From IMG/VR virus record IMGVR_UViG_3300037474_000073: 64,000 nt of DNA. One strand, 5' to 3'. Position numbers and translations under genes: made by a program. Position 1 is the first letter of the stretch. Each line of letters starts with the position of its first letter. Below the pieces are notes generated by a model, which was not told where the DNA came from, did not search any database, and worked only from the letters and a program-made list of their open reading frames with translations. The DNA comes from a virus. This document shows positions 2-64,000 of this stretch, in pieces.

Positions 2-2011
2 GTCGGTCCGCACCGCTGGTGGTCGTTCGCGTTCGTGATGGTCGGCTGGTTCGTCGCCGGTCTGTGGACGCTGACCCGTCTCAACGTCACCCGGCAGGAC
101 CCGCGCGCGCCCGAGCAGAAGGAGGACACGGTCCTCGAGAAGCTCGGCCTCGGCGGCTGGGGTTTCAAGGTCAAGGAGAAGGTCACCGACCCGAAGACCG
201 GCGAGCCGATCCGTACGGTCGTCGAGGCGAAGCACGCGCCGGGCGACACGTTCGACAAGCTCGCGGGTGCCGTCGGGGCGTTCGAGTCGCTGGCCGGCGC
301 ACCCGCCGGCCTGTCCGACGCGAACCCGACCGACGCGGCGAACCGGTCGGTGTTCACCATCCAGCACCGCGATGAGCTGAAGTACCGCCTGCCCTACGGT
401 CCGCTCAGTAACGTCGGCGGGTCGATTCAGGACCCGATCACGTTCTCGATCTATCAGGACGGGAACCCGGTCTGGTGCTACCTGGCGGGTCACCCCGCCG
501 GCGAGTTCCCGCCTACCGGTTACGGCTTCATGGGCATGACCCGCACCGGTAAGACCGTCGGCGAGAACGAGATGATGACCGAGGTCATCAGCCGCCGCGA
601 CGTGGTGATCCTGTATCTGAACCAGGCGAAGGGCCTGCAGGACATCCGGCCGATCATTCCCGGTGTCGAGGCGGCGATCCTCGCCGAGGACGCCTCCGAT
701 CAGGGCGTCGGCGAGTACCGGGCCGCGCTGGAGATGGTCAAGACGATCATCACCTACCGGCAGGGCACGCTCGCCCGGTTCGGCAAGTCGGCGTGGGATC
801 CGTCGTGCTTCTCGTCGCCGCCGGTCCGGCGTATGGCGGACGGCACGGTGCAGCAGATGGAGCCGATGCCCGCCCTGATCGTCCACGTCGGCGAGGCGGA
901 CTCGATCCTCGAGCGCGCGGGCGAGATCGCAACGTACGTAGCGAGCAAGGGCCTGTCGACCGGCATCATCGCGGGCTGGTCGCTACAGCGCGCCTCGGCC
1001 GAGTTCATGCCGACGGGCCTGCGGTTCAACGTTGGCGCGTGGTGGTGTTTCGGCTGTGGCGACGAGGTGTCGGCGGGATTCGCTCTGACCGACGACGTGA
1101 TCAGGGCCGGTGCGCACCCCGAATACTGGAAGCAGGAAAAGCCCGGCTATCACTATTTCGTCGGTCCCGGCACGCCTCAGGCGCGTAAGGCGAAAACCGC
1201 TCGGACGATGAGCGGTGAGAATCCCGACCAATTGCAGAACGAAATGTTGCGCCGCAACCTCGAGAATGCACCGCAGATGGCGAAGCTCGATCGCGGCTCG
1301 GCCAAGTCGACCGGCATGCCGGGCATGCCGAGCAACCGATGGGACCTGTTGGTCAAGAACACGAACCGGATCCGCAACGAGCTGCTCGACGGTCAGGCTC
1401 CCGCAACTCCGTCCGCAAACATGACCGCAAGCGACCGCAATCTGACCCCGCAAACGGAGGAGCACGTGTTCCGCAAAGAGCCCGCAACTGTGCCCACGTT
1501 CACCGCAACCGAACCTGCGGACGACGAGACCGCAGACCGGATGCAGTTCGAGGTTCAGTTCGACGACGAGGTTCGCGGTGTCCGCGAGGTTGAGGGCGTC
1601 GAGCTCTACCCCCGCAACGACGACGGCACGACGGACGAGTCGGTCGACCTGAGCCGGCCGCTTCCGGAGCCGCCGGCCGGCGACGACACGTCGTTCGAGG
1701 AGGACCGCCCGGACGCCCCGAGCCGGGAGGTGGCGATCCTCGCCCTCCACGACGTGCTTCGGAAGCTGATCGAGCGGGAGGATCTGCGCGACCCGGCCGA
1801 CCCGAACGGCAACACGGTCATCATCCAGGTCTCGGACATCTACGGTCCGTACAAGTTCAAGAGCCGCCCGTGGTTCTCCGGTGAGCTGAAGGCACTGGCC
1901 GGCGGGCAGCGCACGCCGCCGCCGAGTCTGTCCCTGGAGCGCGCCGACGACCTCGGGCTGAAGGCGGGCAAGTACCGCCTGCGGCGGATCCCGGACGGTG
2001 ACGACGAGTGA
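2..2011 (+). CDS. FtsK/SpoIIIE-family (TraB-like) dsDNA translocase, 5'-truncated by window edge
   Basis: Frame is open back to nt 2. The track Met at 35 lies inside a TM-like segment (FAFVMVGWFVAGLW). Walker A GMTRTGKT, Walker B-like ALIVHVGEAD. Stop TGA 2009-2011. Confidence 0.8.
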   Translation, partial: VGPHRWWSFAFVMVGWFVAGLWTLTRLNVTRQDPRAPEQKEDTVLEKLGLGGWGFKVKEKVTDPKTGEPIRTVVEAKHAPGDTFDKLAGAVGAFESLAGAPAGLSDANPTDAANRSVFTIQHRDELKYRLPYGPLSNVGGSIQDPITFSIYQDGNPVWCYLAGHPAGEFPPTGYGFMGMTRTGKTVGENEMMTEVISRRDVVILYLNQAKGLQDIRPIIPGVEAAILAEDASDQGVGEYRAALEMVKTIITYRQGTLARFGKSAWDPSCFSSPPVRRMADGTVQQMEPMPALIVHVGEADSILERAGEIATYVASKGLSTGIIAGWSLQRASAEFMPTGLRFNVGAWWCFGCGDEVSAGFALTDDVIRAGAHPEYWKQEKPGYHYFVGPGTPQARKAKTARTMSGENPDQLQNEMLRRNLENAPQMAKLDRGSAKSTGMPGMPSNRWDLLVKNTNRIRNELLDGQAPATPSANMTASDRNLTPQTEEHVFRKEPATVPTFTATEPADDETADRMQFEVQFDDEVRGVREVEGVELYPRNDDGTTDESVDLSRPLPEPPAGDDTSFEEDRPDAPSREVAILALHDVLRKLIEREDLRDPADPNGNTVIIQVSDIYGPYKFKSRPWFSGELKALAGGQRTPPPSLSLERADDLGLKAGKYRLRRIPDGDDE

Positions 2012-2541: not shown

Positions 2542-2553
2542 GAGACCGCAACC

Positions 2554-2898
2554 ATGCCCGACACCGTGAACACCCGACCCCGCAAACTCTCCACCATCCG
2601 CAATGACGTCCGCATGATCTGCCACACCGCGCTCCCCGCGTCGGGCGACTTGCGGTCGATGGCGACCTTCGTCGGCGACACGCTCGGCGCGCAGTTGCAG
2701 ACGAGCGCCATGAGCGTGTCCGAGTCGGAGCGCCTTGTCGAAGAGCTCCAAGGACACCTGCGTAACCTCGCCGAGACCCTCGACGCGACCGCTGCCGCCG
2801 GACAGCGGGTCATTGATGCCCTCGACAACGTCCGCACCTCGTACAACAAACACCTTCAGCGATCCGGTAATCAGTCCGGCGACGTGGTGCTGCACTGA
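2554..2898 (+). CDS. hypothetical protein (114 aa), coiled-coil-like C-half
   Basis: ATG 12 nt after the previous stop, in an operon with neighbours. No domain recognised. Confidence 0.6.
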   Translation: MPDTVNTRPRKLSTIRNDVRMICHTALPASGDLRSMATFVGDTLGAQLQTSAMSVSESERLVEELQGHLRNLAETLDATAAAGQRVIDALDNVRTSYNKHLQRSGNQSGDVVLH

Positions 2899-4775: not shown

Positions 4776-5051
4776 CTACCTTAGCGAATCGGATGCGACC
4801 TCGTCCTCGGGCGCGAGCGTGACGGACGGGACGGCACTGGCGCCCTTGCCGCCGATCTTCGAGGTGATGAGGTTCTTGAGCAGCGAGAACGCCGTGACGA
4901 GCCCGGCCGCGCTCCACAGCTTCCAGTTGTCCAGCTTGAGAACGTCCTGCCAGCCGACCGCGTCGGAGGTGGCGAGACCGAGCACGGATACGACGAACGT
5001 CGCGATCACGCGTTCGGCGATGTCCTTGGCTACGGGGAACTTGCTTGCCAT
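4776..5051 (-). CDS. holin-like membrane protein (r1t-holin-like pattern)
   Basis: 91 aa, AAGGAGA RBS. Pattern AERVIATFVVSVLGL...W..W...AAGLVTAFSLLKNL resembles the Phage_r1t_holin family. Last gene of the lysis cassette. Confidence 0.55.
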   Translation of the reverse strand: MASKFPVAKDIAERVIATFVVSVLGLATSDAVGWQDVLKLDNWKLWSAAGLVTAFSLLKNLITSKIGGKGASAVPSVTLAPEDEVASDSLR

Positions 5052-5066
5052 GATCTGTCTCCTTAA

Positions 5067-33646: not shown

Positions 33647-33856
33647 TCAGACTTCGCTGACCTCCGTGGTCTCCCAGATCATCACCGAGGCGTCTCGGCG
33701 AATGATCGTTCCTGTCTTCTGAACTACAGGGTGACCCATGACCATGAAGGTTTCGCTGCCCTGGAATATGTCCGTGACCTTGATGGCGCGACGTTTCTTG
33801 GCATAGCAGTCTTTGACTCGGATCGTCATCCCGATCTTGATCTCATCTCGCGTCAT
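33647..33856 (-). CDS. low-GC small protein (69 aa), leaderless
   Basis: Trimmed to the ATG at 33856, 6 nt after the -10 TACAGT. About 52% GC by eye, against about 66% for the window. Lys/Ile-rich: MTRDEIKIGMTIRVKDCYAKKRRAIKV... Confidence 0.55.
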   Translation of the reverse strand: MTRDEIKIGMTIRVKDCYAKKRRAIKVTDIFQGSETFMVMGHPVVQKTGTIIRRDASVMIWETTEVSEV

Positions 33857-33862
33857 ACTCAG

Positions 33863-33900
33863 ACTGTACCCCCACCCCACCGACCGCGCAAGGAGCTTGC
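33863..33900 (-). promoter_or_regulatory. conserved promoter/operator module
   Basis: Minus strand: palindrome GCAAGCTCCTTGC (33888-33900) containing the -35 TTGCGC, a 17-bp spacer, then GTGGGGGTACAGT (33863-33875) with the -10 TACAGT. Confidence 0.6.
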
Positions 33901-41309: not shown

Positions 41310-41777
41310 TCAGCGCTCGACATCCGGCATTGCCCCCAACTTCTCGATGAACTGCTTGGCTTCCAGGAACGACCGGGTCGGGTTGTTCACGTATTGCCGG
41401 GCCGGACCCTTACGGTTCTGCGGGAGCTTCGCCTCGATCAGGGACCACGCGCGCCTGCGCTGATCCCAGGTCATCGGCTTACTCGGGTCGGAATCGTCAC
41501 CCCGAGCCCATTCGCCGACGACCGAGCCGGCGTGGTTGCCCCGCAGGACACGGCGCACCTCGGCGTCGGTCATCACGGGACCACGGCGCTCCGGGTGTGG
41601 CTTCTGCTGGCGCTGAGCGAAGAACCCGATCAACGGAGGCGGGCCGATCCACGACTTGAGCCGGAAACACCGCCACCCGATCTGGGCACCACACAGCGGG
41701 CAGACCCGCGACAGAGCGCCGCGCGGACTGTCGCCGGCGACGATCGGCGAGCCCTGAGCTCGCGGAAGTCGCTTCAC
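41310..41777 (-). CDS. hypothetical protein (155 aa) with N-terminal CxxC
   Basis: GTGA overlap with the upstream stop. Confidence 0.5.
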   Translation of the reverse strand: MKRLPRAQGSPIVAGDSPRGALSRVCPLCGAQIGWRCFRLKSWIGPPPLIGFFAQRQQKPHPERRGPVMTDAEVRRVLRGNHAGSVVGEWARGDDSDPSKPMTWDQRRRAWSLIEAKLPQNRKGPARQYVNNPTRSFLEAKQFIEKLGAMPDVER

Positions 41778-42028
41778 GGCGCGATCACCTTGCGGCCGGC
41801 GTCGGTGATCCGCAGCCCGAACCGCCACCCGTTCAAGTTCGGCACGACCTCGATCAGACCCGCCGAGACCAGCGGCTTAGCCCGCAAGGTGACGTTGCGG
41901 TACGGTAGGGTCGCGCGCAGGCGGGCGTGATATGTCTCCTGATAAGCGCGCTTGTAGCCGTCGCCGTCGCTCGCCAGCGCCTCGAGCAGGTGTCGCTGCG
42001 AGGGCAACAGCCGGATTTCAGTTCTCAC
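41774..42028 (-). CDS. winged-helix-like DNA-binding protein (84 aa)
   Basis: LLEALASDG...VTLRAKPLVSAGLIEVV...GLRITDAGRKVI resembles a MarR-type wHTH. Confidence 0.45.
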   Translation of the reverse strand: MRTEIRLLPSQRHLLEALASDGDGYKRAYQETYHARLRATLPYRNVTLRAKPLVSAGLIEVVPNLNGWRFGLRITDAGRKVIAP

Positions 42029-43396: not shown

Positions 43397-43447
43397 ACTG
43401 TACCCCCACGTACCGAGCAGCACAAGCCATCCGCGCAAGTTCTTTGC
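43397..43447 (-). promoter_or_regulatory. conserved promoter module (variant)
   Basis: Minus strand: GTGGGGGTACAGT (43397-43409), -35 TTGTGC (43420-43425) at a 17-bp spacing, and a degenerate palindrome GCAAAGAACTTGC (43435-43447). Confidence 0.5.
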
Positions 43448-54756: not shown

Positions 54757-54950
54757 CACGCGGCCGTCTCGACCGGCAGGCTGAGCCGCTCGCTGGTCTG
54801 CTCGTCGGTCTCTTCGAGCAGGAGGTCGAGCATCGCGGTCAGGTACGTCGACCGGTCGATGCCGAGCCGGTCGCACTTCTCGGCCGCCTTCTGCCAGCGG
54901 TCGGTGGGATAGCGCCAGTTCTGTTTGGGCGTGCCCCTGGTCGTAGCCAT
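54756..54950 (-). CDS. ribbon-helix-helix (CopG/Arc-like) DNA-binding protein
   Basis: Trimmed to the ATG after GAGAGAGGTGACCAC. 64 aa. WRYPTDRWQKAAEKCDRLGIDRSTYLTAMLDLLL fits a strand-helix-helix pattern. Confidence 0.5.
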   Translation of the reverse strand: MATTRGTPKQNWRYPTDRWQKAAEKCDRLGIDRSTYLTAMLDLLLEETDEQTSERLSLPVETAA

Positions 54951-54973
54951 GTGGTCACCTCTCTCATGCAATG

Positions 54974-55007
54974 GATGTACCCCCACTATAGCGCGCTGTA
55001 CCCCCAC
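54974..55007 (-). promoter_or_regulatory. tandem GTGGGGGTACA boxes upstream of the RHH gene
   Basis: Minus strand: GTGGGGGTACAGC (54995-55007) and GTGGGGGTACATC (54974-54986), 21 bp apart. No GCAAG-N3-CTTGC palindrome nearby. Confidence 0.5.
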
Positions 55008-55014
55008 ACGACAA

Positions 55015-55043
55015 CAGCCCCCGACCGTGAAGATCGGGGGCTG
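55015..55043 (-). terminator. stem-loop terminating the 59440-55057 operon
   Basis: CAGCCCCCGA-9 nt-TCGGGGGCTG, followed by TTGT on the minus strand. Confidence 0.6.
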
Positions 55044-55056
55044 TCGTGCGAATTGG

Positions 55057-59440: not shown

Positions 59441-59476
59441 GCTGACCTCGGTTTCTCTCTCGTTGTGCTGAGGTCA

Positions 59477-59553
59477 ACTGTACCCCCACGGGGCCTCACG
59501 TGCAAGCGGCTTGTGACAAGCTACTTGCACAATCGGGTCGGCGAGTGCATGCT
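59477..59553. promoter_or_regulatory. divergent promoter/operator region
   Basis: Leftward: GTGGGGGTACAGT (59477-59489 on plus) with -35 TTGCAC (59500-59505) at 17 bp. Two palindromes: GCAAGCGGCTTG 59502-59513 and ACAAGCTACTTGC 59516-59528. Rightward: -35 TTGCAC 59525-59530, 17 bp, -10 CATGCT 59548-59553. Confidence 0.6.
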
Positions 59554-59559
59554 GAGGAC

Positions 59560-59898
59560 ATGACAGACATCCGGATCCAGACGACCGGGCGCGACACGCT
59601 CGTGACCGGCGCCCACCGCGGTACGACGCTGATGCGACTGCTCTCCCGCGCCCTCGGCGACGCCGGTCCGCTGGACCGGTTCATCGCCAGTCGGCGTGTG
59701 CCGGGCGACCGCTGGCACCGCTGGTCGGACATCGCCGACGACATCGCGACCGCGACCGGTGAACGCTTCAGCGGTGAGTCGGTCCGCCAGTGGGCGGTAA
59801 CGCTCGGCATCCCGCAGGACACCGGTAAGAACGACGGCGCGATCGCGCGCGGTGCGTTCCTCGACGCGATCAGCAAGCAGGGCATTCCGTACGTCTGA
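59560..59898 (+). CDS. helix-turn-helix regulator candidate (112 aa), leaderless
   Basis: Trimmed to ATG 59560, 6 nt after the -10. HTH-like WSDIADDIATATGERFSGESVRQWAVTLGI. Confidence 0.55.
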   Translation: MTDIRIQTTGRDTLVTGAHRGTTLMRLLSRALGDAGPLDRFIASRRVPGDRWHRWSDIADDIATATGERFSGESVRQWAVTLGIPQDTGKNDGAIARGAFLDAISKQGIPYV

Positions 59899-60156: not shown

Positions 60157-60194
60157 GCAAGCTACTTGCGTGATCCGCCACGTGGGGGTACAGT
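60157..60194 (+). promoter_or_regulatory. conserved promoter/operator module
   Basis: GCAAGCTACTTGC 60157-60169 containing -35 TTGCGT (60166-60171), a 17-bp spacer, then GTGGGGGTACAGT 60182-60194. ATG 60201 lies 6 nt after the -10. Confidence 0.65.
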
Positions 60195-60200
60195 AGGGGC

Positions 60201-60449
60201 ATGACGAAGACAGAGGTCGCCCGACTTGCCATCCTCTCGGTTTCCGAAGATCGGGACAGGGTGCGCCCCTCACACCTGACGATCATGGAAATCTGCCGGA
60301 CGCTCAAGCTGTCCACCGATGAGGCGGTTTCTCTGCGGGCGACCGTCGTCACCGACTGGCTGCTCGAAGAGAACGAGGAACGTCGCGACCTGCTTCATCT
60401 CGCTAAGACCGTGATCAACCAGTACGCCCGCGACTACAGCCTTCGCTGA
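60201..60449 (+). CDS. hypothetical protein (82 aa), leaderless, possible HTH
   Basis: No room for an SD. Contains IMEICRTLKLSTDEAVSLRATV. Confidence 0.6.
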   Translation: MTKTEVARLAILSVSEDRDRVRPSHLTIMEICRTLKLSTDEAVSLRATVVTDWLLEENEERRDLLHLAKTVINQYARDYSLR

Positions 60450-60854: not shown

Positions 60855-61696
60855 CCATTCCTACGAGTGAGCTGATCGGTCTGCTGACCGACGTGCTCGG
60901 ATTCGTTCCGGTCGTCAAGGACGACCCGCGCCACGGTGTGCTGATCGAGTGGGACGGCGACGCCCTGCACGCCAGCGCCTACGACGTGCTGTCCGCCGGC
61001 CGTTCGACCTGGACGCCGGGCGAGGGTCTGGAAGGTACGACGGAGATCGACGAGAACGACACGATCCGTCCCAACTGGGGCGGCGACGACCCCGCCTGGA
61101 AGGCGTTCGTGTCGCTCGACGACGTGAAGGACATCGTCAAGACGTTCAAGGTCGCGAACAAGCTCTGGTGGCTCCCGCTCTCGGTGAAGATCTCACCGAC
61201 CGGCGGCAAGCTGACGGTGGAGCGTGCCGGCGACTTCGGCAAGCCTGCCGCCCTCGTGACCGTCGCCGTCGACCACGACGTGACCGCCAAGTTCCCCGAC
61301 GTACGCAAGGCATTCGAGGGGATGTACGACGAGTGGCACGCGCTGGACGACACGATCGACACGATCACGTTCAGCCCGTACCGCCTCGCCGCGTTCGGCA
61401 CGGTCCGCTCTCACGGCACGCTCGTGCTGAGATTCGCCGGCGAGCAGGGCGCGGTGTCCGCGTCGATGGGCAGCCGCTTCATCGGGTTCATCTTCCCGGC
61501 CGGCGCGCGCATCGCCGAGGCGTCCGCGATCCTGAACGCGGCCGGCGACCAGGCGGGTTCCGATCTCCTGCGCCACGGCACCGGCGTCCACACCAGCACG
61601 GTGCCCGAGCAAGATGCCAGGGACGACGGCCCGGCAAGCGACACGTCTCTGGATCCGTCCGACGAGGATGACGACAACGGATCGCAGTTCGACTAG
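60848..61696 (+). CDS. sliding-clamp-like (DnaN-like) protein, short form with acidic tail
   Basis: Trimmed to the ATG after GAGGGAGACGCA. MLTIPTSELIGLLTDVL...GVLIEWDGDALHASAYD...AKFPDVRKAF...GFIFPAG parallels the clamp motifs of 49837-51018. 282 aa. Confidence 0.45.
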   Translation: MLTIPTSELIGLLTDVLGFVPVVKDDPRHGVLIEWDGDALHASAYDVLSAGRSTWTPGEGLEGTTEIDENDTIRPNWGGDDPAWKAFVSLDDVKDIVKTFKVANKLWWLPLSVKISPTGGKLTVERAGDFGKPAALVTVAVDHDVTAKFPDVRKAFEGMYDEWHALDDTIDTITFSPYRLAAFGTVRSHGTLVLRFAGEQGAVSASMGSRFIGFIFPAGARIAEASAILNAAGDQAGSDLLRHGTGVHTSTVPEQDARDDGPASDTSLDPSDEDDDNGSQFD

Positions 61697-61772
61697 CCCG
61701 CACACGACGGAGGGGCGGACCCGTGGAGGTTCCGCCCCTCATCGATCCCGAGAGAGATGAGAGAACCATACC

Positions 61773-62912
61773 GTGAGCACCTCAGAGATTCCTGACACCG
61801 TCACCGGATGGTTCGGCGACGACCCTACTCGGCTGTGGCTGCTGGTCGTACCGACCGCCCTCGCCATCGTCATCGGGTGGCGTCTGATCCGGTTCGCCCG
61901 CGGTGGTCGCCCCGATGCACGGGTGACGCTGGTCGCCACCCTGATCGGTCTCGGCTGGTCGGCGCAGGGCATGTGGGACACCGCCGTGCACCACTACAGT
62001 GTGGCGCCGATCCTGGCCGCCGTGCTGTTCCTGCTCTTCGAGTCGTTCATGGTCGGCAACATGCTGCGCGCCGCCCGCTACCGCACCGACCGGGTACGCC
62101 GAGCGCGCCCGGTCCGATTCGTGTGGCTGACCGCGGTCGTGATGGGCGTGATCGTCGCTCTCGCCGAAGGTGCCGGGCAGGCGCCGTTGCGGCTCGCCGT
62201 CCCGTTGTTGGTCGCCGGCAACTGGTGGATTGAGCTCGTCGCCGACGACGACCCTGCCGACAAGCTGAGCACCTCGTGGAAATGGACGCCGCGCCGCCTC
62301 GGTCTCGCGCTCGGGCTGCTCGAGCCCGGCGCCAAGGACGCGGTCACGATCGACCGAGACCGGCTGACCGCCAAGCTGACCGCGCTGCGTTTCCGTCAGC
62401 GCTACGGCTGGACCTGGCTCGGTGACGTGACCGGTCGCTCGCGCCGGATCGCCCGCCTGGGCCTGCTCGCCGATGACGCGATCGTGACCGAGTCGGACCT
62501 GCGCCTGCAGCGCGCCGCCCGGCTGATGGGTGACGAACCGGTGCCGCCGGCCGACCAGCCCGCGCCCGAGTCGCACCCGACGATGCCCGAGCAGCCCGCA
62601 CCGCCCGCCCGTGTTCCCGCACCGACACCCGAGCCCGAGCCCGAGCCCGAGCCCGCCCCGACCGAGGGCACCCCGCTTCCGCAGGGCGTCCACATCCGCG
62701 CCGGCCGCACGTTACGTGGCGCGGCCCTGCGTGCCGACGCCGCTGCCCGGTTGCAGGCGTCCATCGGTGCCGAGCGCCCGCGCGGCATGACCACCGCCGA
62801 GCTCGCCGCGCTCTATACGCCGCCACTCAAGGTCCGCACCGCCGAGGCGATCGCCGCCGAGGCGCGCAAGTCGCTACCGGTCAACGGTCACCGGTTCGCC
62901 GACGCGAACTGA
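61773..62912 (+). CDS. polytopic membrane protein (379 aa), DUF2637/Spd-like candidate, Pro-rich linker
   Basis: GTG after CCGAGAGAGATGAGAGAA. About 4 N-terminal TM helices, a PEPEPEPEP linker and a C-terminal helical region. Confidence 0.6.
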   Translation: MSTSEIPDTVTGWFGDDPTRLWLLVVPTALAIVIGWRLIRFARGGRPDARVTLVATLIGLGWSAQGMWDTAVHHYSVAPILAAVLFLLFESFMVGNMLRAARYRTDRVRRARPVRFVWLTAVVMGVIVALAEGAGQAPLRLAVPLLVAGNWWIELVADDDPADKLSTSWKWTPRRLGLALGLLEPGAKDAVTIDRDRLTAKLTALRFRQRYGWTWLGDVTGRSRRIARLGLLADDAIVTESDLRLQRAARLMGDEPVPPADQPAPESHPTMPEQPAPPARVPAPTPEPEPEPEPAPTEGTPLPQGVHIRAGRTLRGAALRADAAARLQASIGAERPRGMTTAELAALYTPPLKVRTAEAIAAEARKSLPVNGHRFADAN

Positions 62913-62922
62913 CAGACACAGA

Positions 62923-62955
62923 GCAGCCCCCGACCTGAGCAAGGTCGGGGGCTGC
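62923..62955. terminator. bidirectional stem-loop between convergent genes
   Basis: GCAGCCCCCGACC-tgagcaa-GGTCGGGGGCTGC, a 13-bp perfect stem, then TTCGT. Confidence 0.7.
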
Positions 62956-62968
62956 TTCGTGCGGTAGC

Positions 62969-63193
62969 TCAGTACGGATAGACCTTGCGCAGGGCCGTCC
63001 GCATCCGAGAGATCATGTCTTCGGTCGCCGCGCTGTCCTCAGGGTCGCCCATCTCGACGATGCCTGCGGTGATGTCCAGGAAGTCGCAGAGCAACTGAGC
63101 CTGGCTTTCGTTGACGACGATCGTGACGTCGCCGTACTCGTTCTTCTCAATGTCGATGGTGTCGGTGTCCGCGAGGTTGCTCATGCCTGTCAT
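62969..63193 (-). CDS. acidic hypothetical protein (74 aa)
   Basis: Trimmed to the ATG that overlaps the stop of the zinc-finger ORF (ATGA). Confidence 0.55.
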   Translation of the reverse strand: MTGMSNLADTDTIDIEKNEYGDVTIVVNESQAQLLCDFLDITAGIVEMGDPEDSAATEDMISRMRTALRKVYPY

Positions 63194-63342
63194 CCGTTCT
63201 GCGAGTTGACGTCGTGGTCGGTCCTGAGCTCGTGACGCTCGAGTTCGTCGCGGGTCGCATATCCGGCGCCGCACTCGTCGCACTCGTACTTGATCCTGCC
63301 GCGCCCGGTCTGTGCGTCGCTGATGCGCTGGGTCTCGGTCAT
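63190..63342 (-). CDS. 50-aa C2H2-type zinc-finger protein, leaderless
   Basis: MTETQRISDAQTGRGRIKYECDECGAGYATRDELERHELRTDHDVNSQNG (C-X2-C-X12-H-X5-H). ATG 63342 lies 6 nt after the -10. Below the track cutoff. Confidence 0.5.
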   Translation of the reverse strand: MTETQRISDAQTGRGRIKYECDECGAGYATRDELERHELRTDHDVNSQNG

Positions 63343-63348
63343 AGCTCT

Positions 63349-63412
63349 ACTGTACCCCCACCCCCTAAGTTATGCAAGCTACTTGCGCAGACGGGTAGGG
63401 TGGGGGTACAGT
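63349..63412. promoter_or_regulatory. near mirror-symmetric divergent promoter/operator
   Basis: ACTGTACCCCCAC 63349-63361, 12 bp, GCAAGCTACTTGC 63374-63386, 13 bp, GTGGGGGTACAGT 63400-63412. -35 TTGCAT (leftward, 17-bp spacer) and TTGCGC (rightward, 18 bp) lie within the palindrome. Confidence 0.65.
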
Positions 63413-63442
63413 AGTCGTATCACCGAGAGAGAGCAGGACACG

Positions 63443-63895
63443 ATGAACAAGCCGATCACCTTCCAGGTCGTCAAGGGCACGAACGTCCGGCGCAACGCCG
63501 AGACCGGCCTCGAGATCCACCGCGACTGCGACGGTTTCACGTTCTTCTCCCGCCAGCGTGACGGCTCCCTCGCCTACTGGGGCGAGGAGTACAGCCTGCG
63601 CGAGGCGCTCGCCGAGGGCCGCGAGAAGGTCCAGATGATCCGCGACCACATCGACATGGACCACGAGGATGCGCTCGAGATGGAGCAGGAGCGGACGCTG
63701 GCGCACATCACCGAGGTCGCCGCCGCAAACGACCTCCCCCGCAGGGCGCGCGAGCTCGCCGAGGGCATCTACATCAAGGCGATCAACTTTCGCAAGGGCG
63801 GCGAGTACGGCAAGGCGATCGGCTATCTGAACGCCGCAGTCGTCAGCATCGACAAGAGCGCCGAGGCATACGCCTTCATGGCAGGCACCCGATGA
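63443..63895 (+). CDS. hypothetical protein (150 aa)
   Basis: Trimmed from track start 63290 to the ATG after CCGAGAGAGAGCAGGA. Confidence 0.6.
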   Translation: MNKPITFQVVKGTNVRRNAETGLEIHRDCDGFTFFSRQRDGSLAYWGEEYSLREALAEGREKVQMIRDHIDMDHEDALEMEQERTLAHITEVAAANDLPRRARELAEGIYIKAINFRKGGEYGKAIGYLNAAVVSIDKSAEAYAFMAGTR

Positions 63896-63972
63896 GCTTC
63901 CCCGTCGTGGCGATCGCCCTGGGCACGCTCGGGGCGATCCTGGCCGTCATCAACATCATCCGTCACCGCTGA
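63892..63972 (+). CDS. micro-ORF, 26-aa single-TM peptide
   Basis: MSFPVVAIALGTLGAILAVINIIRHR. ATGA overlap with the upstream stop. Followed by CCGAGAGAGCGAGAGAG and an ATG at 63995 that the window end cuts off. Confidence 0.4.
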   Translation: MSFPVVAIALGTLGAILAVINIIRHR

Positions 63973-64000
63973 CCCGAGAGAGCGAGAGAGATCATGCTTC

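Follow-up and report, generated by a model that had tools for sequence, protein, structure and literature searches.

A recurrent, predicted divergent promoter module with a putative shared operator precedes a single C2H2-type zinc-finger gene in an uncultivated phage

Divergent promoters with one protein-binding region between them are known from Tn10 (tetA/tetR with tetO) and from phage phi29 (A2c/A3 with p4). Among control sites repeated within a phage genome, the stoperators of cluster A mycobacteriophages are asymmetric sites of 13–14 bp that occur, together with a repressor, in many copies along both genome arms, and conserved inverted repeats are found at early promoters of phiC31. Here, we analysed a 64,000-bp stretch of viral DNA (IMG/VR record IMGVR_UViG_3300037474_000073; the whole stretch is hereafter called the window), in which a first-pass annotation had singled out positions 63190–63443 as a nearly mirror-symmetric control region driving a leaderless gene for a 50-amino-acid (aa) C2H2-type zinc-finger protein. 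With a little more than even confidence, we read this region as one copy of a reused promoter–operator module, having promoters of the sigma-A type, a dyad as putative operator and a finger gene that is real but accessory. Within this reading, the transcription starts, the sigma factor, the operator function, the binding of zinc and the role of the protein are predictions from sequence. The promoters, the leaderless start, the genuine finger and the common operator of the first-pass annotation were retained as plausible; the uniqueness of the element and the role of the finger as its regulator were not.

Direct reading of the sequence reproduced every coordinate of the proposed layout, including the 13-mers, the dyad, the spacers, the offset of the ATG and the open reading frame (ORF). 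Leftward, the extended −10 box GTGGGGGTACAGT (63349–63361, minus strand; the top strand reads ACTGTACCCCCAC) contains the −10 hexamer TACAGT (63354–63349), from which the −35 hexamer TTGCAT (63377–63372) is separated by a 17-bp spacer; TTGCRY stood at the same place in other copies. The ATG at 63342 follows this −10 after 6 nt. Rightward, the −35 hexamer TTGCGC (63383–63388) lies 18 bp, on direct reading, from the TACAGT at 63407–63412 in a second box GTGGGGGTACAGT (63400–63412, plus strand). Between the boxes lies the dyad GCAAGCTACTTGC (63374–63386, both strands), which has the form GCAAG-CTA-CTTGC and is 12 bp from the left box and 13 bp from the right one. The pattern GCAAG-N3-CTTGC takes in four bases of each −35 hexamer, and the layout thus bore out two outward-facing promoters with a common dyad that supplies both −35 hexamers, an arrangement we consider plausible. 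The two −10 hexamers (63354 and 63407) are 52 bp apart, with about 45 bp between the −10 boxes and about 77 bp between the predicted starts. The inverted repeat exceeded the extent first described: its 31-nt arms (63333–63363 and 63398–63428) are 87% complementary. An RNA structure formed by this repeat was rejected because the arms belong to two different, diverging transcripts.

Each promoter would thus consist of a −35 TTGCRY, a spacer of 17–18 bp and the invariant extended −10 GTGGGGG-TACAGT. Leftward transcription would begin at the A of the ATG at 63342, the predicted +1, and would yield a leaderless mini-operon of two genes, coding for the zinc-finger protein (63190–63342, minus strand) and an acidic protein. 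Rightward transcription, with its +1 predicted at 63419, would give a transcript (63419–63895, plus strand) in which a 24-nt leader (63419–63442) carrying a ribosome-binding site precedes a 150-aa gene (63443–63895). This agrees with the leader of about 24 nt proposed before, and the leader was conserved in a related phage (L002, introduced below). Purine runs of the GAGAGAG type were observed in leaders shortly before the start codons of leadered genes (63425–63436, 59452–59462, 54955–54965, and 63975–63990) and probably form part of the ribosome-binding sites of this phage.

The region is not a one-off, as it had been treated, but a single instance of a standard promoter module that each genome carries about ten times. 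Copies were compared across four phages: the window phage, of which a Logan contig (L001) is a further copy, and three related phages that share gene order with the window, represented by the contig encoding protein P0002 (L002) and by contigs carrying homologues of a 112-aa protein (L003–L006). The 13-mer GTGGGGGTACAGT occurred in six exact copies in the window vs. 0.00 in shuffled sequences, and the dyad, at no more than one mismatch, in eight places vs. 1.32 expected; with both counts far above expectation, chance could be excluded. Besides the two boxes described, exact 13-mers were present at 33863 (−), 43397 (−), 59477 (−), and 60182 (+), and near copies at 54974 (−) and 54995 (−). Once aligned on the box, most of the window copies show the dyad 12–13 bp upstream, and three show an ATG precisely 6 nt downstream.

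Across the four phages, 26 distinct box copies were found, and GCAAG-N3-CTTGC lay 12–13 bp upstream in 20 of these. An ATG stood exactly 6 nt past TACAGT in 12 of the 26 (binomial p 1.7e-17) and at 7 nt in one further copy; public gene calls, which were made independently, begin at the ATGs 6 nt past TACAGT. The leaderless start claimed for the 50-aa gene is therefore plausible, as the same offset recurs in 11 other copies. Back-to-back pairs with one common dyad were seen seven times, with box starts 50–51 bp apart, and the position syntenic to the region studied held such a pair in all four phages. In an alignment of six pairs, including the left box at 63349–63361, only the two boxes and the dyad arms were invariant, and the spacers and the dyad centre were variable. 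The boxes in the window (about eight) are all upstream of genes, each facing the gene that follows it; none lies within the structural-gene region (5–28 kb), and they are confined to the non-structural part of the genome and the head of a leftward terminase/portal run. Taken together, the boxes would divide transcription into about ten units in a simple map.

Compared with tetA/tetR and phi29, the module differs in that a single 13-bp dyad holds both −35 hexamers, in its reuse about ten times per genome, and in the frequent leaderless starts. It resembles stoperators and the phiC31 repeats in being built from short, repeated, conserved sites oriented with transcription and, as proposed here, linked through one phage protein to the control of promoters, and differs from them in sequence, in its fewer copies and in the position of all copies upstream of gene starts. 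Measured against the definition of cluster A stoperators, the box shares the asymmetry, the length of 13 bp and the co-orientation, but it falls outside the class with about eight copies in the window and no similarity found to known phage records. Symmetry-driven bidirectional promoters are alike in that pseudo-symmetric DNA fires both ways (10.1101/2020.01.31.928960; PMC12825309). In these, key elements coincide on opposite strands and the binding of one RNA polymerase excludes the other (10.1101/2020.01.31.928960); by that description the module is of another kind, with separate −10 boxes and only the −35 region in common.

The identity of the host bears on how the promoters should be read. 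The window covers 64,000 bp of a phage genome of ~67,392 bp (about 67.4 kb; the corresponding JGI contig measures 67,519 bp), which is circular or terminally redundant, since L001 adds 3,392 bp that join the window end to the window start. The G+C content of the window phage is 67.5%, and profile scans identified genes for a bacterial beta-clamp, SSB, an ERF recombinase, a YqaJ exonuclease, and a DNA methylase. For the portal protein, nearly all matches were to phages of Gordonia, Mycobacterium, Arthrobacter, and Corynebacterium, with identities reaching about 40%, and the terminase matches were at about 35% identity. From this resemblance we infer an actinobacterial host for an uncultivated phage whose closest known relatives infect Actinomycetota. 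At the nucleotide level, megablast of positions 61000–64000 against GenBank phages returned zero matches. A haloarchaeal host, an idea raised by the high G+C content, the leaderless genes, and weak DUF7128 matches, was rejected because the beta-clamp and SSB are bacterial, the portal is actinobacteriophage-like and the conserved element lies at the −10 rather than the TATA-box position.

With such a host, RNA polymerase carrying the principal sigma factor most likely reads the promoters of the module. In Mycobacterium tuberculosis, leaderless mRNAs are abundant, and the −10, TANNNT, lies 7–12 bp ahead of the start and has [G/C][A/G]N before it in half of the cases (PMC3898074). On both sides of the region, GGG-TACAGT conforms to this −10 of actinobacterial principal sigma factors (SigA/HrdB-type; PMC3898074), and the −35 hexamers fit TTGNNN at 16–19 bp, with TTGCAT at 17 bp and TTGCGC at 18 bp. 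The ATG at 63342 coincides with the predicted +1, within the 6–7 nt after the −10 that characterise an AUG or GUG used for leaderless initiation.

The translation of 63190–63342 (minus strand) gave exactly the 50 residues of the first-pass annotation, whose coordinates and protein thus held; its statement that the ORF was missing from the gene track did not, since the gene is called in both the public JGI and the Logan annotations. The ORF has a G+C content at third codon positions (GC3) of 0.86. In a collection of 5.8 billion proteins, the finger protein had two entries, itself and P0002 of L002, which is 80% identical. Differences between the two ORFs numbered 2, 7, and 15 at codon positions 1, 2, and 3, and the dN/dS was 0.17; the conservation that had been proposed as a check was thereby found. 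The ligands are spaced C21-x2-C24-x12-H37-x5-H43 and all four are conserved in P0002, as are the hydrophobic core residues Y19, Y28, and L34, which supports a genuine C2H2-type signature. The AlphaFold model, also suggested as a check, predicted a beta-hairpin (strands 19–20 and 27–28) followed by a helix (31–45), that is, a beta-beta-alpha fold, at a low mean predicted local distance difference test (pLDDT) score of 64 (77–79 in the core). We conclude that the ORF is a real, selected gene for a single finger of the classical C2H2 type, with predicted zinc binding.

Sequence searches with phmmer against the PDB and 1.84 billion representative proteins found only classical multi-finger proteins, and the best single-finger stretches shown scored ~15 bits; the high phmmer/HMMER totals of multi-finger proteins were sums of many weak per-finger matches. 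In a viral fold library, the best matches were fingers of giant eukaryotic viruses, none of them from a phage. P0002 scored 24.5 bits for PF13894, below the threshold of 27 for that family. No match was obtained by tblastn against phages with the finger or with a 102-aa finger protein of L002, and no literature linking C2H2 fingers with mycobacteriophages was found. Protein-guided scans with the finger yielded ten loci, none of whose matches covers the whole protein, and the three that were read proved to be false relatives: a CxxC stretch in a 323-aa protein beside an 865-aa ORF (L008, of the near-identical group L007–L010, L012, and L013), a zinc ribbon (L016), and a poly-Q, eukaryote-like protein (L011).

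Among described fingers, the textbook consensus of eukaryotic Kruppel/Zif268 fingers (PF00096) is fitted by Y-x-C-x2-C-x3-Y-x5-L-x2-H-x5-H of the phage protein, the helix RDELERH resembles RSDELTRH of Zif268, and the fold predicted for the phage protein is beta-beta-alpha. This protein differs from eukaryotic C2H2 proteins in being a single finger instead of an array, in its H-x5-H spacing, in its acidity and in scoring ~15 bits per finger. The Ros/MucR proteins of alpha-proteobacteria are larger, with a different globular fold and other ligand spacing. Their likeness to the phage finger lies in a C2H2-like metal site in a bacterial setting (PMC7710501), and the family was absent from the Pfam results of the finger. 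Closest in kind is AFV1p06 of Acidianus filamentous virus 1, likewise a tiny protein of a prokaryotic virus with a single classical finger and short, probably disordered tails (PMC3541406). AFV1p06 (59 aa) has an archaeal host, lacks the fourth ligand His and binds DNA, whereas the phage finger has four ligands and is acidic; no bacterial homologues were found for its family (PMC3541406). The 60 best PDB sequence matches of the finger did not include it, nor did its top Foldseek matches shown from the PDB. Classical fingers are nearly absent from bacteria, accounting for about 0.003% of genes (PMC3541406), which supports the rarity in bacteria and phages that had been noted earlier.

The gene is nevertheless accessory to the module, since the module is preserved to the base in L003 and L006, where an unrelated 77-aa gene occupies the leaderless slot. 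On the rightward flank, the 150-aa protein of the window is replaced in L003 and L006 by an unrelated 103-aa protein. With the genes on both sides differing between relatives (window 63334–63445 vs. L003 14027–14140 vs. L006 3750–3860), the invariant promoter marks mosaic junctions, and the conserved module may serve as a recombination point.

The combined reading of sigma-A-type promoters, operator and accessory finger gene has to be weighed against several observations. Only four related genomes were available, every one metagenomic. A scan of 62800–63600 for the Escherichia coli sigma-70 consensus (at least 9/12) returned 0 sites; the module hexamers failed this test, as expected with only 7/12 matching positions. 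The invariance of GTGGGGG in 26 copies exceeds what ordinary sigma-A recognition explains, and the boxes without a dyad upstream of a gene for a protein resembling ribbon-helix-helix (RHH) regulators read TACATC and TACAGC, which lack the final T of TANNNT. In back-to-back pairs, a palindrome follows automatically from two opposed −35 TTGC motifs. The 112-aa protein, a positional candidate for the regulator, had no match in Pfam, PDB, or NCBIfam, and its AlphaFold model (pLDDT 49) gave meaningless Foldseek matches. For the finger itself, Pfam zf-C2H2 (PF00096) scored 21.8 bits (E 2.4e-4), below the gathering cut-off of 25.2, and the best Foldseek PDB matches, all classical fingers superposed at ~1 Å root-mean-square deviation over 27 columns, had E values of about 1 because the domain is so short.

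The most serious alternative, which we still regard as unlikely, is that the dyad has no regulator: it would be a by-product of back-to-back −35 hexamers or of an inverted promoter duplication, and the distal halves carried by one-way promoters would be relics. The automatic palindrome in every divergent pair fits this, as does the inverted repeat of 31 nt at 87%, which goes beyond functional need and suggests duplication or gene conversion; moreover, no cognate DNA-binding protein was found in profile, structure, and fold searches. Against it, five one-way promoters in the four diverged phages (window 60182, window 33863, L002 7790, L003 10493, and L006 690) keep a perfect distal half GCAAG, while the neighbouring spacer and the central 3 bp differ among them. 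Two dyads 14 bp apart, an arrangement that back-to-back −35 hexamers do not require, adjoin the gene for the 112-aa protein in the window, L003, and L006 (L002 has a single dyad). Because of these one-way promoters and double dyads, we favour the dyad as the operator of a dimeric phage protein. It is a dyad-symmetric site that overlaps core promoter elements, and it is conserved beyond what the promoter itself needs, with perfect distal halves, invariant arms, and a variable centre.

Bound at the dyad, a dimeric phage regulator would cover both −35 hexamers and shut both directions here, and the same putative regulator would control the whole promoter set at once; candidates for its role are lysogenic repression and early-to-late shut-off. 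The earlier proposal that one dimer could control both promoters is plausible in the light of arms that are invariant in 20 of 26 copies, one-way promoters included, around a centre that varies. By position only, the 112-aa basic protein (59560–59898, plus strand), which is present in all four phages and always adjoins dyads, is a candidate for this regulator. A weak −10 (CATGCT, 59549–59554, rightward; CATGAT in L002) lies 6 nt before its ATG at 59560, and the layout of the locus resembles that of a regulator gene under its own control that faces a strong promoter. The helix-turn-helix (HTH) label that the gene at 59560 had received could not be verified, as shown by the absent Pfam and PDB matches and the low model confidence. 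A tblastn search with the 112-aa protein against phages gave no match, and protein-guided scans of genome and viral contigs found no relatives of its family, and hence no prophage and no host clue. The RHH-like 64-aa protein (start 54950; judged RHH by eye) is a further regulator candidate by position only. Profile searches and tblastn against phages turned up no homologue of known phage repressors, and neither an integrase nor a prophage relative was found in scans of the phage proteins and contigs. Searches of PHROGs, NCBIfam, and PADLOC yielded no significant match to the finger, its acidic partner, the 77-aa alternative, and the 112-aa and 82-aa proteins.

Given the invariant GTGGGGG and the dyad-less boxes without a final T, a protein may bind the box as well, or a different sigma factor may read it. 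In its full form, this alternative holds that the 13-mer is not primarily a sigma-A −10 but either the site of a phage protein, stoperator-like or an RHH target, or a GGGTAC-type −10 for a SigB/SigF-like or phage-directed sigma factor; we think it rather improbable, and it is compatible with the preferred explanation. GGGTAC resembles the SigB/SigF-type −10, GGGTAY. The conservation of GTGGGGG is in favour of this alternative, as TANNNT alone suffices for sigma-A (PMC3898074). So are the dyad-less boxes with TACAGC and TACATC upstream of the RHH-like gene. In the window they are arranged in tandem, 21 bp apart (GTGGGGGTACATC and GTGGGGGTACAGC, 54974–55007, minus strand, upstream of the 64-aa gene starting at 54950), and in L003 they form an inverted pair separated by 9 bp (5029–5063). 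These boxes suggest a separate role for GTGGGGGTAC, perhaps in autoregulation by the RHH-like protein. Against the alternative, TTGCRY at 17–18 bp and a start codon exactly 6 nt past TACAGT have the geometry of sigma-A promoters, and no gene for a sigma factor or RNA polymerase was seen among the window-phage proteins scanned. A phage-encoded RNA polymerase behind the invariant promoters was considered and dropped, the 791-aa candidate being a membrane-anchored P-loop protein.

Sigma-A-type promoters remain part of the reading that we prefer. A broader scenario, doubtful at present, would depart from it: a lineage of actinobacteriophages may have taken up classical C2H2 fingers of the eukaryotic or archaeal-virus type as early, leaderless products aimed at proteins or nucleic acids of the host, with two paralogues each first behind a two-way promoter, and its promoters, with their invariant 13-bp box and common dyad, may constitute a phage-specific programme under an unrecognised factor rather than plain sigma-A. 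The second of these paralogues was observed in L002, where a 102-aa protein (2545–2853, plus strand) carries the C2H2-like finger YRCLECGTPVASVGELFRHRTDEH at its N-terminus and an HTH-looking C-terminal part. This protein is the leaderless first gene product behind a two-way module and is 54% identical to the window finger over 24 residues; its syntenic counterpart in the window phage, a 63-aa gene (L001 2627–2818), is without a finger. The other L002 finger protein has a 32-residue acidic tail (L002 4986–5084) with four extra Cys residues (C-x2-C-x9-C-x4-C), possibly a second metal site.

The first-pass annotation had named the finger protein as a candidate regulator; that it binds the region and autoregulates we consider very improbable. 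In favour of this, the leftward promoter would yield the protein first, the helix of the finger carries the Zif268-like residues RDELERH, and the paralogous finger of L002 is fused to an HTH-looking tail. Nonetheless, in L003 and L006 the dyad and the boxes are unchanged and the finger gene is absent. The finger is single, with no second copy found in the window, and the protein is acidic (isoelectric point 4.9, charge −4.3; −14.3 for the L002 homologue). Being accessory and acidic, the finger is an unlikely regulator of the region, and the candidacy proposed for it was not upheld; it is more likely a protein-binding, host-directed factor than a regulator of this DNA, judging from these features. 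That the 50-aa ORF is no gene at all and its Cys/His pattern due to chance, as its shortness, its Pfam score under the cut-off, and its one known homologue might suggest, is most improbable in view of its GC3, its dN/dS with most differences at third codon positions, its conserved ligands and core, a start exactly at the leaderless offset shared with 11 other genes, and its calling by two pipelines.

The second gene of the leftward mini-operon (62969–63193, minus strand) encodes an acidic protein of 74 aa, or of 71 aa if translation starts at 63184. The shorter form, from the second ATG, is suggested by the Logan call and by a 38% identical L003 homologue that aligns from residue 4; the acidic gene described earlier was thus recovered, and its ATGA-overlapping start (63193) may be off by three codons. 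In L002, the finger gene is not followed by a separate acidic gene, and a word-index search with the acidic protein found only itself. Between the convergent units, a strong G+C-rich hairpin (62916–62962, both strands; −39.5 kcal/mol, z −7.8) is a probable two-way terminator ending the zinc-finger operon. A simple terminator scan passed over it because it has no T-run, and Rfam gave only far sub-threshold hairpin matches. Similar hairpins were observed just upstream of other promoter copies, e.g., at 55010–55045.

The remaining copies in the window take several forms. A one-way module with dyad and box (60157–60194, box at 60182, plus strand) precedes the leaderless ATG at 60201 of an 82-aa gene. 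The module at 59477–59554 has its box on the minus strand (59477–59489) and two dyads (59502–59514 and 59516–59528), and would drive the leftward recombination/replication operon. At 33863–33900 (minus strand), a box and the dyad GCAAGCTCCTTGC precede a leaderless ATG at 33856 and head a leftward, minus-strand run that includes terminase and portal genes. The copy scan also placed a box with a displaced, imperfect dyad at 43397–43447 (minus strand). About 2.4 kb past the window end (L001 2557–2620), a second two-way module is leaderless in both directions, each box being followed at 6 nt by an ATG. The divergent pair, sought as an exact pattern among viral and genome contigs, gave 0 matches, as did the exact dyad-plus-box pattern in metagenome contigs, a collection that evidently does not hold the source samples.

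Two other proteins of the window phage were noted. The 791-aa protein (window 35–2011, plus strand), whose gene begins beyond the window end, after an HTH_17 gene, had no Pfam match; with membrane segments at its N-terminus and the Walker A motif GMTRTGKT, it may be a DNA translocase of the FtsK/TraB kind, which would be unusual in a phage. A 172-aa protein (41313–41828, minus strand) had a weak, sub-threshold match (E 0.0033) to the Pfam family Phage_zn_bind_8, a putative DNA-binding zinc finger of phages.

The promoter module appears to be a variant, not previously described, of known kinds of phage control region, and it marks points of gene-cassette swapping between related phages. If the proposed function is correct, the ~64-bp element would be a portable actinobacterial part with two strong, co-regulated outputs, one of them leaderless, and the ~10 near-identical promoters of each genome would form a natural set for the study of leaderless initiation, extended −10 recognition, and divergent control from a single operator. 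The finger would be a rare, putative and member-like relative, encoded by a bacterial virus, of classical C2H2 fingers. If this is confirmed, bacteriophages would join the few carriers of such fingers outside the eukaryotes, and this 50-residue protein would offer a test case for the role of a lone acidic finger in infection.

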